From: Candidatus Sulfomarinibacteraceae bacterium
GTDB lineage: Bacteria; Acidobacteriota; Thermoanaerobaculia; Thermoanaerobaculales; Sulfomarinibacteraceae
Assembly (NCBI GenBank): GCA_963796455.1
Contig: CAWCLO010000008.1
Span: 89,361-153,360 of the forward strand
Direction of reading: 5' to 3'
Length of the DNA stretch: 64,000 nt
Part shown: positions 54,751 through 62,675 of the stretch, in pieces
How the letters are laid out: every line of letters starts with the position of its first letter
Numbering within the stretch: the first letter of the stretch is position 1
The notes under the pieces: model-generated
Seen by the model: only the letters and a program-made list of their open reading frames with translations
Told to the model about the DNA's origin: nothing
The model's database searches: none
Made by a program: the position numbers and the translations under genes

Positions 54751-56128
54751 AAAGTTGCGTGTCGTCGTCCCAATCCTCGATCTTCGCCACGTACTCCGGA
54801 TCTTCGTATCGCGCGGGATGGAATGCACCGGCATACTCGGGCAGCTTGTCCCCGGCCACGTGCGCTGCGACCAATTCGGCGGTAGCGCATGATGCCATCA
54901 GCCCGAAACCCGACAGCGCGCCGTGCACGAACGCCCCCTCCACCGGAAGCGGCCCGGCCAGGGGCCGGTTTTCCTTTGTCTTGGTGTAGTAACCGCCGTC
55001 GATGTGCGGCTTCGGCATTCGTTCCACATAGGCACCGAGCCCCGGGATCATGGTGGCGATCCCGCGTATGCAGATCTCCGCATAATGGTCGGGTATGGGC
55101 AGAGGAAAGTTCTCTGCTACCGGGTTGAGATGATACGGCCACAGGATGAGCAGGTGGCCGCTCTCTCCACCACCCTCGATACGGGTGTGGACACCGGCCG
55201 GCATCTCGCCGAGCAGCAACTTCCCATCCTCCGTTTCAGCCAGGAACTCGCGCTCGTCCTCGGTCCAACCCAGATGCTGAGAGTCCTCCCAGATCATGAA
55301 TGGCGCATCGCGAGGCACGACCCCAAGGTGGTCTTCGATCGAGACCTTGAGGTGGAGTTCAGAAAAGACCGGCAGCTCGAGGCCCAACTGGATGCCGACG
55401 TCGTGGAGCAGGGGACCGGCGGCGTTCACGAATCGTGGAGTACTGATCGTGACCACCTCACCCGTGGTGCCCACCTGAACCGCCGACACGCGGCCTCCCG
55501 GTGTCTCGATCCACTCCACGCGCCCCTCGATGACCTCGACCCCGGCGTCCCTGGCTTGCTCGAGTTGAAGCATGCCCAGCTGCTGGCCCGAAAACCATCC
55601 ACAACGTCGGGCGTGGAGCACAGCGACGGTATCTTCCGAAAGGAACGGAAACTCGCGCCGGATCAGCTCGGGATCGGTGATCAGATCCGCACCATTCGGT
55701 TGATCTTTCCAGCCGTCACTCGGAGCCGGCCGGTAGTCGGTGCTATCGCCTTCGGGGTGGATCCGCACCGGCCCGGCGCCGTAGCTCGAGGCCAGGACCG
55801 CTGAAGCCCGCATCCCTTCGATCCGGTCCGGATCAGCAGTCGCAAAGAGATAACCCCGCCGGTTCAAAAGAAAGCGGTTGTCACTCGCCTCGGCCAGTTC
55901 CTCCAGCAGATCGATGGATCGATTCATGAGCTGCACCATGGCGTCGTCGGGCCCAGGCCACCAGTTTCGATACGCCTCGGTGGACTTGTCCGAGGTCAAT
56001 GTCATCGGAGCCCTCTCGTCCACCAGCACCACATTCTTCATGCCGTGGACAACGGCTAACTGCCGGGCCACCGAGATCCCCGCGATCCCGGCACCACAGA
56101 TCACAATTTCGGCCGTCCGTTGAGTCAC
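54749..56128 (-). CDS. FAD-dependent oxidoreductase (DAO / sarcosine oxidase beta-like)
   Basis: ICGAGIAG, VNAAG, GALSGFGLM. Confidence 0.88.
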   Translation of the reverse strand: MTQRTAEIVICGAGIAGISVARQLAVVHGMKNVVLVDERAPMTLTSDKSTEAYRNWWPGPDDAMVQLMNRSIDLLEELAEASDNRFLLNRRGYLFATADPDRIEGMRASAVLASSYGAGPVRIHPEGDSTDYRPAPSDGWKDQPNGADLITDPELIRREFPFLSEDTVAVLHARRCGWFSGQQLGMLQLEQARDAGVEVIEGRVEWIETPGGRVSAVQVGTTGEVVTISTPRFVNAAGPLLHDVGIQLGLELPVFSELHLKVSIEDHLGVVPRDAPFMIWEDSQHLGWTEDEREFLAETEDGKLLLGEMPAGVHTRIEGGGESGHLLILWPYHLNPVAENFPLPIPDHYAEICIRGIATMIPGLGAYVERMPKPHIDGGYYTKTKENRPLAGPLPVEGAFVHGALSGFGLMASCATAELVAAHVAGDKLPEYAGAFHPARYEDPEYVAKIEDWDDDTQL

Positions 56129-56544
56129 GACGTTGCGACCTCTTCGAGCGCTTCAGCCAGGGTGACCACGCGTACTCGCCCGACGACACTCCCAAAAAGA
56201 TGACCAAAATGTCTCCGATCGCCGGTGACCAGCAGGTCGGCTCCGGCAGCTGCAGCCGAAGCGAGGATGGGAGCGTCGTTTTCGGGAAGCCCAAGCTGCG
56301 TGGCCCAGGCGACCAGGACGGGGCCGGCTTCCGGAACGAGGCGAACAACCTTCAGGACATGATCGAACCTGTCCGTGCTCGAAGGTGATTTCACCATCAA
56401 GTTCCGCTCGACCTCAAAAACGGCGTGCTGCGATGAAATGATTTCGCAGTGCCCGGACTCGGATAATCTGAAGAGTTCATGCGCCCCGCCGCGGGACGAA
56501 TGCGCGGCTGAGAAGAGGACGTTTGCGTCGAGAAAGAGCCGCAC
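56125..56544 (-). CDS. PIN-domain toxin (VapC-like)
   Basis: LFLDANVLFSA, NDAPILA, LVTGDRRHF. Confidence 0.88.
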   Translation of the reverse strand: MRLFLDANVLFSAAHSSRGGAHELFRLSESGHCEIISSQHAVFEVERNLMVKSPSSTDRFDHVLKVVRLVPEAGPVLVAWATQLGLPENDAPILASAAAAGADLLVTGDRRHFGHLFGSVVGRVRVVTLAEALEEVATS

Positions 56545-56793
56545 TCACGACTCCTCGAGTTTCTTTCTGATCTTCTCCCGCAGTTCGTCGCTGATCTGAT
56601 CCTCCTCCATGAACTCGGCGACCCGCGCGTCGCTATAGAGCTCGATGGGATAGACCCCCGCAGGCCGAAGCAGAATCGACCCGTCGGCAGTGGCCTCGAC
56701 CAGCAGAATGGTCTCTGCCTCAATTCCCAGCTGCTCGAGCACCGCCTTGGGTATCGAGACTTGTCCCCGTTTGCCTAATTTCGCAGTTTCCAT
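56545..56793 (-). CDS. AbrB/MazE-type antitoxin
   Basis: KLGKRGQVSIPKAVLEQLGI. Confidence 0.88.
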   Translation of the reverse strand: METAKLGKRGQVSIPKAVLEQLGIEAETILLVEATADGSILLRPAGVYPIELYSDARVAEFMEEDQISDELREKIRKKLEES

Positions 56794-56868
56794 AAAATCA
56801 AGATAAATGATTTCATGATTTTCTGCAATTCGAATGATCAATCGACGACTCGACCGTTCAAATTGCGT

Positions 56869-57306
56869 TCAGTGCCGCCGCAACGGATGGCGCCACCGGA
56901 GGTCGGGGAACCGGTCGAAGTCTGAATCGGTGGTGATCAGTGTGCAGCCGTGCTCAATCGCGACCGCGGCATGTTGTGCGTCCGCTGCCAACTTGCCAGC
57001 GGCTCCAGACCTGCGGCAGAGGTCTTTGAAGATCTCCAGGTGGAGGGCACCCGGATGGATCATCCTTGCATTCGGGCGGCCGGTGAGTTCGTCGATGAAG
57101 GAGAACACCTCGTCGAGGGTCGACGGCCGTTGAAAAATTTTCGGATTGGTGACGATCCGGACCAGGCCGGAAAGAGCGAGTGAAGAAATAGCGAAGGGCT
57201 CGAAGCCGGTAGCCACATCCGTGAGCCATCTGGCATACGCGGCGTGGTCGTCGCAGGAATCACTTCGATGGGCGTAGATCAGCACATTGACGTCGGGCAC
57301 GAACAT
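56869..57306 (-). CDS. vapC: VapC-family PIN toxin
   Basis: PDVNVLIYAH, RIVTNPKIF, DAQHAAVAIEHG, TDSDFDRF. Confidence 0.9.
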   Translation of the reverse strand: MFVPDVNVLIYAHRSDSCDDHAAYARWLTDVATGFEPFAISSLALSGLVRIVTNPKIFQRPSTLDEVFSFIDELTGRPNARMIHPGALHLEIFKDLCRRSGAAGKLAADAQHAAVAIEHGCTLITTDSDFDRFPDLRWRHPLRRH

Positions 57307-57554
57307 CAGTCGTACCGCTCCTCGTCCTCGGCGACCATCAATTCTCGTGGCCGGTCGAGATCGATCTCCGGATACGGCCCGCCACCGCCGACCGTTACCA
57401 GACGAAACGGTTTCTCCTCCTCCGGCCGAAGTTCGCGTTTCATCGCGTCATCGAGCACGGCCGCGATCAACCCACTGACACTGCGACCCTCGGCGGCCGC
57501 CCGCCGTTTCACCGCCTCGAAGATCCGGTCATCGAGAGAAATCGTGGTCCTCAT
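57306..57554 (-). CDS. vapB: RHH-type antitoxin (VapB-like)
   Basis: MRTTISLDDRIFEAVKRRAA; stop overlaps the toxin start. Confidence 0.85.
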   Translation of the reverse strand: MRTTISLDDRIFEAVKRRAAAEGRSVSGLIAAVLDDAMKRELRPEEEKPFRLVTVGGGGPYPEIDLDRPRELMVAEDEERYD

Positions 57555-57665
57555 GCATAACATCATAACATTAGTATGAATATGATGCAAATCAAAAAGG
57601 CCGGGTTTGTTTCGTGTTGGTTTCCACAGCTCCCCAAAAATCCAAGGTCCAGGGGTGGTTGCGCG

Positions 57666-57700
57666 AAATTCCGAATTCCGAATTCCGAACTCCGAATTCC
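57666..57700 (+). repeat. (GAATTCC)n heptamer array upstream of tRNA-Leu
   Basis: Seen directly. Confidence 0.9.
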
Positions 57701-57722
57701 AGCTATGATGGCTGTGTCTCCT

Positions 57723-57805
57723 GCCGGAGTGGCGGAATGGCAGACGCTGGGGACTTAAAATCCCTTGGGAGTAATCCCGTGTGGGTTCGACCCCCACCTC
57801 CGGCA
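57723..57805 (+). tRNA. tRNA-Leu(TAA), CCA not encoded
   Basis: GCCGGAG/CTCCGGC acceptor, CTTAAAA loop, long variable arm, GGTTCGAC. Confidence 0.95.
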
Positions 57806-58243
57806 TTTCCACGCCAGGGTTACTGCGGCCTTTCGCCGCCGTGACTCGTCGGAACCAGCGGACGGCTCTGAGCCGCCTCCACCCATCCGCCCAGCGGCCA
57901 GAACCATGAACCGCTGCTTCTCGCCGTGAACGAACTCACCCTCAGCGGCGTGAACTCGGAGGCGCTGTCGGATTCGAGTCCGGCACGGCGTGTTGACCTA
58001 CCCGAGGTCGTCCTCCATAAACGGACGGATCTCGGTGTTTTCGCGTGCGCCCTGATTCCCGATTGGTGTGACGGAAGAACGATGACTTCCGGATGGAGTA
58101 CGATCGTCTCGACAGCTGAGTTGCGGCGAAGCGTGATCAGCGAGCGCACCATTCCGGACTCCGGGTCAGAGAGTTTTATTGGTGAACGGATCCCGGATTG
58201 GATGGTGTCAGGAGGTTCAAACAATTTCAGGGTGCTGCACGCG

Positions 58244-59271: not shown

Positions 59272-60002
59272 ATGAAGAAAAGTGCGTTCCGGGTGTTGCT
59301 GGTGGCCCTGGCCGTATCGTTGATCATTTCGGGATGCGGCGCTGGTGGTGGGTCTGTTGCGGTCACTCCCGAGGAAGCACAGTTATCGCCAAGGAGGCCT
59401 ATATCTACGGTTTCCCCATGGTGATGAACTACAAGAAAACGCTCTACAACTACGTGATCGACACCTCGAACCCCGAGTACCCGGGGCCGTTCAACGAGGT
59501 TTCCTGTGAGGCCCGTCTGTTCACACCGGAGGACAAGGCGGTGGTGACTCCCAACGCCGACAAGCCGTACTGCATGTTCTGGATGGATCTTCGGTCGGAA
59601 CCGCTGGTGCTGACCGTGCCCGAAACGGAACCGGAATGGTTTGCCAGTTTGGGCGCGTCGATCTCTACACCCACAACTTTGCCTATGTGGGGACCCTCAC
59701 GACCGGAAACGGAGCGGGCAATTTCTCCTGGTTGGCCCCGGCTGGGAGGGAGAGCTTCCCGAGGATATTTCCGATGTGATCCGCAGCGAAACGGAGTTCA
59801 TCTTCAGCGTCACCAGGACCCAACTCTTCGGACCCGAAGACCTGGTGAGAGTGGAGGAGATTCGTGACGCCTATGCTCTGCAGCATCTCAGCGCGTATCT
59901 CGGGACGGATGCTCCGCCTCAGGCGGCGACGCCCGATTTCCCGGAGTGGGTCGAGGGTTCCCAGTTCGACGAGCGTTTCTTCGGTTATCTCGACTTCAAA
60001 TC
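59272..60002 (+). pseudogene. DUF1254-domain lipoprotein, frameshifted and truncated by the Y1 element
   Basis: IAKEAYIYGFP, VVTPNAD, WMDLRSEP, LVGPGWEG, RTQLFGP. Confidence 0.75.
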
Positions 60003-60100
60003 GGTGCCAGATGGGATGAGTAGGCCGGCCCCCTTTTACGAAGTAGCACAATGCTCTCCAAGTCTAAACGGGCTCGAGGCCCAAGACTAAGGAGACCGGC

Positions 60101-61125
60101 ATGGAATATTGTGGCATTGACGTACACCAAAAGTACAGTGAGATTTGCATCTTGGCCGAGGACGGCGAGGTGATGGAGACCTCGAGGGTCCAGACCATCG
60201 CGAAATGCCCTCGAACGGTTTTTCTCCAAAAAGAACCGATGAAGGTCGTCCTTGAGGCTGGTGGCTCATCACCCTGGGTATCGCGGCTTATCGAGGTCTC
60301 GCGGACACGAAATGGTCGTGTGTTCCCCGCGTCGGGTCCGACTGATCGCGGAAAGCACGCTCAAAAACGACACATCGATGCCGAGGTCCTGGCGCGTCTG
60401 GTGCGGCTCGACCCTGGGTTTCTCGGCCGATCCAGCACCGTAGCGAGGAAGCTCAGCTGCTGCGATCCAACCTGAAGGTTCGTTAAGCGCATCGTCGAGG
60501 CTCGCACCAAGTGGATCAACACCATGCGTGGAATTTTGAGAAGCTTTCGGATACGGGTGTTCCGGGTAGTGCTCCCAAGACATTCCACACTAGCGTCGAC
60601 ACAGATGTGAACTGCCCCCGGACTTGAGAGCTGTGATCGAGCCGCTGCTCGACAGCTAGAGCTCTGAATCGTGAAATCACCCGTCGGGTGAGCACCTTGA
60701 GGAGACGCTCAAGGACTACCGGAGGTCCAGCATCTGCGTCAGATCCCCGGTGTCGGGCTGGTCGTCGCGACGTACTTCGTGCTGACCATTGATGACCCTA
60801 TCGTTTCAGGCACAGTCGTGACGTCGCTTCATTTTTCGGACTCCGGCCATCCATGCGTGCGTCCGCCTCGGAGTCACACTTCGGTCGAATCACCAAAGAG
60901 GGTGACCCGGAGATGCGGCGACTACTGGTCCAGGCGGCGCATGGATGCTTCGGACCCGGGCAGATTCCGACCTCAGGACTGGGCTCTTGCACTCGCGGCG
61001 CGAAGAGGCAAGGCAAGGCGGTCGTGGCACTTGCTCGGAAGCTGGCGGTCCTGATGCACCACCTGTGGGTCACCGGAGAGGTCTATCAGGCGTTCCCGAA
61101 TAAAGAAGTTGCTCAGGCGGCTTGA
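60101..61125 (+). pseudogene. IS110-family DEDD recombinase, multiply frameshifted
   Basis: YCGIDVH, VVLEAG, KND.IDA, IPGVG, GLRPSMRAS, GRITKEGD, AVVALARKL across frames. Confidence 0.88.
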
Positions 61126-61129
61126 TGAC

Positions 61130-61400
61130 AAAACGCTCCAGAAAGGTGAAATGATCTTTGTTGATCACCAACGACGTTAGATTTGGGCGACTTCGGTAAA
61201 GCCTCGGAAGAGCTATCGGACGATAACCACCGCCGGCAGTCCGCGTGCCAGATGAAGCGCCCATCCTCGTCGGAACCCCCATGCACCGGTCGAACGCTCA
61301 TCGGCCATCAGAGTGCGGATAGAAGCGAGACGGGAAGATCATCCAAACACGACTGACACCAAAGGGGGTTTGTGACCGATCTAGATTCTGATTGACTATA
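61130..61400 (+). ncRNA. Putative bridge/seek RNA of the IS1111-group element
   Basis: Two internal loops carry target-matching (TAAAGCCT, GTGCCAG) and donor-matching (CCCAT, ATAGAAG) segments; transcript ends unknown. Confidence 0.75.
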
Positions 61401-61470
61401 ATCGGCCTACTCATAGAAGGCTTTAGAACCTTAGAAAGTTGAGGTAGGCTGTTGTCGGAGGAATTCGGCA

Positions 61471-62445
61471 ATGGCAAGACGGCCGAGAATCGTGGTCGAA
61501 GGTGGCCTGTACCACGTGTACAACCGGGTCTCGAGCGGAGAGCACATTTTCGCTGATCCTGAAGAGGCGATAGAGTTCATCGAAATCGTTCGGGATATCA
61601 AGAAGCGAGATGGCTGGACGATTTTCGCCTGGTGTGTGATGTCCAACCATATCCACGTGGTTTTGCGAACATCTACCGTTCCGCTTTGGCGCGGGATGCA
61701 TGGGATCCAGAACCGATTCAGTCGCGGGTTCAACCGGCGGCACGGACGAACAGGTAGCCTTTGGCAAGGGCGATACAAGACGAAGTACGTTGAGGATCAG
61801 AGCTATCTGGATCGGCTCGTTTTGTACGTTCACCTCAACCCGGTGAAGGGGGGCCTGGTGGACGACCCGGAGGAGTACCCATTTGCAGGGCACCGGGAGG
61901 TGAAGCGGCGGTTCCGATCGCCGTTGGTGGACGTCGAAGACATGCTGCTGTGCTTCGGCGAGACACAGAAGGCGGCTCGGCGTAGCTATCTGCAGGCCAT
62001 GAGAATCGGTGTCGATCCGGACGCTCCTGAGCTGAAATCCACATGGCACCCGTTTGGGAGAACGGAAGATGCACCACTCCGGGTGAACGCGGATGCGATC
62101 CATGTCGATCTCCAGGGCCGGACGACGGATCTCGAGCGACCGAGACTGGAAGCGAACGAGTTCATCCGTCGCGTTTGCGAGCTCGCGGGGTTCGATCCCG
62201 ATCAGCTTGCTTCAAGGGCGAGAGACCGCGATACCGCCAATGCCCGGAAAGTGGTCGCAACGCTTGGCGTCGAACGTTGGGGTCAAAGGAGAACCGCTTT
62301 GGCCGCCGTGTTGAACAAGAATCCGGATGTCGTGAGTTTTTGGGCGGGGGAAGGAGCGCGCAGACGACAGGAAGACCCGGACTACGCGGCGAAGCTCGAT
62401 GAGCTCGATAGACGCCTCTCGGCATCTCTCACCCGCAGGGGTTGA
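61471..62445 (+). CDS. Y1/HUH tyrosine transposase (RAYT-like) with C-terminal extension
   Basis: YHVYNR, CVMSNHIH (HUH), LWQGRY, YVHLNPV; intact ORF. Confidence 0.9.
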   Translation: MARRPRIVVEGGLYHVYNRVSSGEHIFADPEEAIEFIEIVRDIKKRDGWTIFAWCVMSNHIHVVLRTSTVPLWRGMHGIQNRFSRGFNRRHGRTGSLWQGRYKTKYVEDQSYLDRLVLYVHLNPVKGGLVDDPEEYPFAGHREVKRRFRSPLVDVEDMLLCFGETQKAARRSYLQAMRIGVDPDAPELKSTWHPFGRTEDAPLRVNADAIHVDLQGRTTDLERPRLEANEFIRRVCELAGFDPDQLASRARDRDTANARKVVATLGVERWGQRRTALAAVLNKNPDVVSFWAGEGARRRQEDPDYAAKLDELDRRLSASLTRRG

Positions 62446-62675
62446 AAATGCAACTTCCTAAGGTTCTAAAGCCTGGCACCAATAGAATTTGTCACAACGG
62501 GGTGGACGACGCGTTGTACTGTGTGTGGCGCAGAGTTTACGAAGGAACGACTGACCGACGGGCAATTGCTGAAGTGTCCGTCTCCGGATTGTCTAGCAGA
62601 GGCCTACGTTATTATCCGGTAGGATGAACGCTCACCCCTAGGTTTTCGGATTAGAAAAAGGTTGCTAGGCATCGA

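Follow-up and report, generated by a model that had tools for sequence, protein, structure and literature searches.

The window, the whole 64,000-nt stretch of DNA analysed here, carries at 60009-61417 an insertion sequence (IS) of the IS1111 type. A two-loop guide RNA is predicted in its 3' end, and judging from sequence comparison this RNA very probably directs the DEDD recombinase of the element to the outer tips of the terminal repeats that flank Y1 transposase elements of the TIRYT type. What is directly observed comprises the ends and the empty site of the element, a two-loop fold conserved among relatives, and guides that change together with their targets. The features discussed below are, in order of position:

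60003-60008 (+): left target GGTGCC, the outermost bases of the Y1 element's left terminal inverted repeat, severed by the IS (from the intact sister repeat and the empty sites L202-L204)
60009-61417 (+): IS1111-type element, with a single AG core (the second AG lies at 61418-61419)
60009-60015 (+): core AG plus ATGGG, forming the 7-nt left extension (right donor; from the sequence and its relatives)
60016-60027 (+): left subterminal inverted repeat, 12 bp, a perfect pair with 61403-61414
60101-61125 (+): IS1111-type DEDD recombinase gene (tnp) with about 20 one- or two-base frameshifts (profile matches and indel map)
61182-61340 (+): core of the predicted bridge/seek RNA, a target-binding loop followed by a donor-binding loop (consensus fold and model R1)
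61185-61262 (+): target-binding domain, with outer stem 61185-61194/61254-61262 (bulged A) and inner stem 61205-61208/61240-61243
61197-61204 (+): right-target guide TAAAGCCT, whose complement is the top strand AG-GCTTTA (covariation with the right flank)
61245-61251 (+): left-target guide GTGCCAG, with an invariant AT after it (covariation with the left flank)
61267-61333 (+): donor-binding domain, with outer stem 61267-61271/61329-61333 and inner stem 61282-61286/61313-61317
61276-61278 (+): right-donor guide as placed by the family register, CCC here for lack of an A (CCCA in relatives)
61319-61325 (+): left-donor guide ATAGAAG (in relatives, each guide compared with its own right end)
61392-61397 (+): -35-like hexamer TTGACT facing the right end (tally in relatives; part of a presumed junction promoter)
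61403-61417 (+): right subterminal inverted repeat (12 bp, 61403-61414) and 3-nt extension AGA (left donor)
61418-61441 (+): right target, consisting of the core AG and the rest of the Y1 element's left terminal repeat
61471-62445 (+): intact Y1 (HUH) tyrosine transposase of 324 aa with a weak DnaA-C-like HTH (TIRYT/TnpA-Y1 subclass 2.1 type)
62451-62480 (-): the Y1 element's right terminal inverted repeat, a whole copy of the target that no IS occupies

The element belongs to a known class. Its subterminal repeats form a perfect 12-bp pair (IS1111-type repeats measure 11-13 bp), and its extensions, fixed by the empty site, are the 7 nt on the left and 3 nt on the right that characterize the type, the left one preceding the repeat in the same manner in most of the elements whose left end is complete. 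The match to the top strand of the target (61197-61204) lies 5' of the match to the bottom strand (61245-61251), which is the IS1111 order, and the non-coding region 3' of tnp spans about 290 nt in the window and about 230-490 nt in relatives. At the protein level, the window recombinase gives partial Pfam matches under the cut-off, with PF02371 above it in a six-frame search; the recombinases of intact relatives (about 340 aa) show PF01548 (DEDD RuvC-like) and a C-terminal PF02371 above the cut-off in 3/3 cases, and match NF033542 with 262.7 bits against a cut-off of 140. All the strings quoted in the first-pass annotation of this DNA were found where it had placed them, and its main proposal, that of an IS1111-group element whose 3' region specifies a two-loop guide RNA aimed at the very repeat that hosts it, is supported, as the guides follow the targets and the matches fall in loops.

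The IS is present as a single copy in its genome, since neither blastn nor the RNA model detected a second one there, and the other IS110 gene of the genome (L002) has no parsable ends and no match to the RNA model. Searches of viral contigs with the frameshifted N-terminal ORF and of plasmids with blastn returned no match; the nearest plasmid-borne recombinases are about 35-37% identical. The RNA region has no match in Rfam at E up to 1, and the PDB search yielded no IS1111-type structure. In a relative (L025:116-217), two IS left ends stand face-to-face at a distance of about 90 bp and make up a palindromic mini element.

The recombinase gene of the window copy departs from those of intact relatives by 19-22 frameshifting indels (0-2 in controls), while retaining a third-position bias (mismatch 0.115/0.10/0.43), and three further single-base gaps private to the window lie within the RNA. 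From the sequence, assembly error is a likelier cause of the frameshifts than decay, and the organism itself probably has an intact copy that was garbled during assembly. Raw long-read error typically looks like this, with about 20 indels per kb and hardly more second-position changes than expected, and the genes upstream are also fragmented, open-frame cover dropping at the end of the contig (0.55 and 0.47 in its last two bins, against a median of 0.92). Could the window copy instead be a truly decayed pseudogene, its frameshifts and the A missing from its RNA being real? Its long terminal branch (0.45) would agree with this, as would the nearly gap-free state of the adjoining Y1 element, whose gene shows 0-2 gaps relative to its relatives, so that errors are not uniform and true decay is conceivable; given the error-like pattern of the indels we nevertheless consider it unlikely. 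Among the public sequencing runs listed, none is of RNA and all DNA shares were below 0.2; four of them contain relatives only, with 61118-61204 uncovered, and so do not settle the indels.

The gene next to the IS encodes a Y1 transposase with the motifs HIH and YVHLNP (YxxxNP type), matching PF01797 (E = 1.4e-11) and NF047646 above the cut-off, and PF08299 weakly, below it. A 30-bp inverted repeat pair flanks this gene; the IS splits the left arm and leaves the right arm whole. In three related Y1 elements (L202-L204, 89-92% DNA identity), the left repeat is uninterrupted, GGTGCC being directly joined to AGGCTTTAGAAC. This empty site fixes the insertion point of the IS and, together with the inverted copy at 62451-62480, bears out the target GGTGCC-AG-GCTTTAG that the first-pass annotation had proposed. 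The 32 Y1 loci examined (30 from the homology search and two from this genome) almost all possess an inverted repeat pair scoring at least 12 (31/32), and in 29/32 the repeats start with a GGTGCCAGG-like motif, the split repeat of the window being one of the three exceptions. A genome-wide REP family was ruled out as the nature of the target, the full repeat having only two copies in this genome.

Several observations concern the surroundings of such repeats. In the window, a DUF1254 lipoprotein gene, read in several frames (59273-59999), stops abruptly at the start of the left Y1 repeat, and the contigs of relatives continue with other sequence at this point. Further upstream (56125-57806), two likely toxin-antitoxin pairs, one VapC being confirmed, adjoin a tRNA-Leu (57722-57806), possibly marking the edge of an island. 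Two near-identical Y1 genes in tandem, free of IS and with a repeat variant of their own (GGTGCCAGGTACGG...), occur at G000 C4 1143200-1147600 (L003, L004), and the IS copies L046 and L040 are inserted in sites of the GGTGCCAGGTACGG type. For the region 61440-62452, contigs from two sequencing runs (X4 and X2) have both repeats joined by a short spacer with no Y1 gene, which suggests non-autonomous miniature elements. Finally, 3' of the IS in L045, the target site is repeated directly about 99 bp apart.

Homology searches provided 200 loci, of which 135 had both ends, and 103 distinct relatives were left after removal of duplicates, of two extra copies of the window and of one false parse. All four guides could be parsed in 87/103, ten being dropped for short flanks and six for failed anchors. 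Folded alone, as the first-pass annotation had advised, the segment 61130-61400 gives a structure that is not significant (z = -0.35) and partly pairs the two target guides (their mean probability of being unpaired is 0.61 and 0.57), whereas the RNAalifold consensus of 19 aligned copies consists of two domains, both built around a two-sided internal loop, and places all four guides in loops, none in a stem. Changes on both sides affect 16/37 pairs of this consensus. The outer stem of the target-binding domain is 99% paired, with changes on both sides at two pairs (5 cells). The CTCG/CGAG stem drawn by the first-pass annotation around the donor loop is probably misregistered according to the consensus model, in which 61267-61271 pair with 61329-61333 instead: it is 85.5% paired, has no compensatory change and has one pair broken in 7/19 sequences, against 89.5% paired and one compensatory change for a six-pair version of the alternative, a modest margin. 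Model R1 scores the window RNA at 144.9 bits (the window itself being in the training set), and the RNA model finds the scaffold in 8/150 other genomes sampled from the phylum.

In 200,000 mononucleotide shuffles of 61130-61400, matches of 8, 7 and 7 nt never occurred together. Covariation was evaluated with one element per distinct guide, at non-core positions, by shuffling sites 20,000 times. The left-target guide reached 82/90 matches (36.1 when shuffled; 0/20,000 reach this value) and the right-target guide 137/234 (71.9 when shuffled; 0/20,000), the latter in a fixed window that leaves some distant elements out of register and one mis-anchored. Among close kin only, the values are 29/30 against 19.7 (27/20,000) for the left and 87/114 against 49.0 (0/20,000) for the right. 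Guides and targets are both common to kin, and these counts thus overstate significance. On the tree, however, the GCTTTA guide has four separate positions and the GTCC guide has three, with flanks that mostly match (L130 is an exception), and held-out elements found by the RNA model only (L235 and three G212 copies) have guides that fit their own targets and ends, different as these are. The target guides change with the targets, and those at 61197-61204 and 61245-61251, both recognized in the first-pass annotation, hold on the two counts of covariation with the flanks and of an unpaired state in the consensus.

All five positions of the left-target guide are matched in 72/87 elements; the right-target guide tolerates mismatches, with 37, 40, 39, 32, 33, 30, 19, 22 and 11 matches at successive positions in 41 close elements. 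The base following the right-target guide is T in 43/44 elements and AT follows the left-target guide in 44/44, which would fit a post-exchange handshake pairing; as their DNA partners are invariant, covariation is uninformative at these bases. In G169 (L236, L243-L263; 19 copies), the balance is opposite to that of the group of the window: the right flank is fixed (AGTGGCCT) and the left flank retains CT only.

For the donor side, the proposal that all four guides are identifiable is not supported in the form given, the right-donor guide having been misplaced by a one-nucleotide deletion. An A after 61278, absent in the window, is present in 18/18 aligned relatives, and CCCAT, taken as right-donor guide at 61278-61282, exists only because this A is lacking. 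Such a 5-nt match arises in 23% of shuffles, CCCAT occurs twice in 61130-61400, and this register is matched 5/5 in 1/87 elements, the window alone. The family guide, a four-base string that stops five bases short of the inner stem, lies about 3 nt upstream of CCCAT. It is matched 4/4 in 61/87 elements and follows TGGG, TGAG and TTGG donors (42/48 matches, against 36 when shuffled; 30/20,000 reach this value), its last position being untracked in 21/87 (TGGT vs TGGA; TTGG vs TTGT or TTGC). The left-donor guide matches the right end at all five non-core positions in 83/87 elements, with a mismatch in 4/87, and co-changes with it in the ATAAA and ATGGA lineages; with only four variants, its shuffle test is not significant (20/20 against 17; 1,649/20,000 reach this value). 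The 19 copies of G169 have mismatches in both donor guides. In G212 (L240, L244, L247), the left extension is apparently one base longer (AG-ATAAGG), with a matching right-donor guide.

The AG core described for the window is that of the majority, being found on both sides in 64/87 elements, but is not fixed across relatives: in the remainder the left side reads TG (19) or the right side AC (4), and a fixed AG core was rejected on this count. In the subgroup with TG at the left junction (L022, L052-L063, L094, L099, L154-L176), the right junction reads CG, GG, GT or AG and the donor guide CG, the first core base thus differing between the two ends.

By analogy with IS621, ISEc11 and ISPa11, the IS would excise as a circle, with its right end joined to its left end across the core, and this junction would create a promoter transcribing tnp and the RNA. 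In 98/98 elements tallied, the last base of a TTGAC or TTGAT hexamer lies 19-20 nt from the right end, with no strong -10 consensus; the promoter scan found no sigma-70 promoter in the linear element, and no circle junction is among the joints listed for four sequencing runs. The recombinase would then bind the guide RNA, whose first loop would pair with both target strands, the top-strand guide coming first as in the IS1111 order, and whose second loop would pair with the circle junction, before the strands are exchanged at the core of 2 nt. What close kin recognize seems to be set mainly by GTGCC-AG and the next one to four bases, the conserved end of the repeat; the outer part of the right-target guide drifts toward repeat variants.

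Do IS1111 elements need a donor loop, as in a bridge RNA, or a short seekRNA only? The first loop could be the only one to guide, the protein reading the ends of the IS at the subterminal repeats and the second loop being structural or a by-product of processing. An 82-nt RNA with target matches alone was reported as sufficient for ISEc11 movement (PMC11187229), and in the present family donor sequences vary little, significance is not reached for the left donor, and mismatched donor guides occur in several lineages. Yet donor guides co-change with the ends in separate lineages, namely ATAAA (L143), ATGGA (5/6 such ends), TGAG (20), TTG (13) and TAAGG in G212, and IS4321, at only about 29-31% protein identity, has the same donor-loop layout with matching guides, which makes a guide role confined to the first loop rather improbable. 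The two-loop reading can be pursued in the natural series assembled here, which bears on this question: it contains about 50 guide sets whose targets are known, along with intact recombinases that are 42-100% identical, and gives a position-by-position view of guide tolerance for an IS1111-type RNA.

To what extent is this clade devoted to Y1 repeats? Sites were compared over 17 positions beyond the reach of the guide with a library of 51 Y1 repeats (threshold of at least 11). Repeat-like sites make up 19/41 distinct sites of close kin (window included), against 4.5% of 537 genomic GTGCCAG sites, and 11/41 close-kin sites, against 5/267 controls, have an inverted copy of themselves no more than 160 bp away. 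In distant kin, 5/50 sites are repeat-like. A Y1 gene occurs within 100 bp of 2/41 close-kin and 3/50 distant sites, many flanks being short. The sequences point to TIRYT repeats as a major target of the close group, though not the sole one, since 22/41 close-kin and 45/50 distant sites are unlike the repeat library.

Repeat targeting might be incidental, with a guide that reads GTGCC-AG-G and Y1 repeats being one frequent source of this word. Over half of close-kin sites are not recognisably repeat-like, 12/41 are the palindrome GTGCCAGGCAC, and lineages with left guides GAGCC, GCGGC or GTCCC have abandoned the GTGCC target. The roughly tenfold enrichment of repeat-like sites over ordinary genomic GTGCCAG sites weighs the other way, as do right-target guides that mirror particular repeat variants (L135 that of L216/L219, L138 that of L220, L109/L112 that of the window), and we doubt that chance supply of the word is the explanation. 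A stronger claim stands at about even chances in our estimate: that of an Acidobacteriota IS1111 clade specialised on TIRtrons, which would hold its left guide on GGTGCC-AG, retune its right guide to each repeat variant, split an end needed by the Y1 transposase, and have its donor loop selected to match the circle junction. If this is true, the donor loop is under selection and IS1111 elements use a true bispecific RNA, beyond a short target-seeking one. No literature linking IS110-family elements to TIRYT repeats was found in sources that included few subscription papers.

The system itself is not new. It is a further IS1111-type guide RNA, to which the present family adds a repeat target and a natural series for the donor loop, and the surprise is limited since the mechanism class is already published. 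Downstream guide RNAs with the top-strand guide first have been shown by experiment for IS1111 elements (PMC11187229), known IS1111 insertion points are compiled in a review (PMC13604230), orthologs have been screened (bioRxiv 2025.05.14.653916), and the structure and handshake of IS621 are described in PMC11208158 and PMC13626964. According to PMC11208160, a bridge RNA is predicted in 93% of ISfinder IS1111 elements, and donor-binding positions were inspected there in three IS110-group and three IS1111-group examples. The parts of its supplement that were searched do not contain the family motif, apart from one match in an unrelated-looking row, and the family may be in the database. The new scaffold announced by the first-pass annotation was thus an overstatement, the more so as the donor loop of IS4321 can be aligned to model R1 (E = 0.0055, E-values being rough) in the same register and with guides that match its ends, which makes the scaffold a clade variant of the IS1111 type. 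Of six plasmid IS110 loci compared with model R1, among which end detection is reliable for IS4321 only, weak matches were obtained in a Methylocystis element and IS4321, and nothing below E = 0.8 in ISShdy1, IS5708, ISGdi15 and a Ruegeria element.

IS4321 shares with the window element subterminal repeats with 7/3-nt extensions (AGA on the right), a 3' non-coding end, an alignable donor loop, and a target that is the terminal repeat of another element (PMC11208160, PMC11187229). It differs in protein sequence, as well as in target, core and host phylum, its target belonging to a Tn3-family transposon in contrast to a Y1 (HUH) element here. The seekRNA systems of ISPa11, ISEc11 and ISKpn4 (PMC11187229) likewise have an RNA 3' of tnp with the top-strand guide 5' of the bottom-strand guide, a DEDD enzyme of about 340 aa and natural retargeting among relatives, ISPa11 being directed to REP repeats. 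Their RNAs are experimental whereas that of the window is predicted, the comparison covers their published description, and in the window family covariation points to a donor loop. As for IS621 and ISCro4 (PMC11208160, PMC11208158), they also display two internal loops and four guides around a 2-nt core, short and tolerant right-side guides, a bulged A in stems, and a first core base that is less fixed than the second. Unlike the window element, they belong to the IS110 group, with an RNA at the left end, a reversed guide order, a CT core and short repeats; their solved structures resemble the window family in the C-terminal part only (E = 6e-14 and 4e-12).

On the target side, the Y1 element, from its sequence, fits both TIRYT/TIRtrons (PMC3733652) and TnpA-Y1 subclass 2.1 with a DnaA-like HTH (PMC6006769), with which it has in common a RAYT-like Y1 gene, a C-terminal HTH and flanking terminal inverted repeats. 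The GGGGWSAS consensus of many published TIRYT repeats is absent here, the repeats beginning with GGTGCCAGG; TIRs unrelated to GGGGWSAS also exist among published elements (PMC3733652), and this source may already list the GGTGCCAGG motif. The terminal repeats of TIRYT elements thus join REPs, attC sites and Tn21 repeats among the known landing sites.
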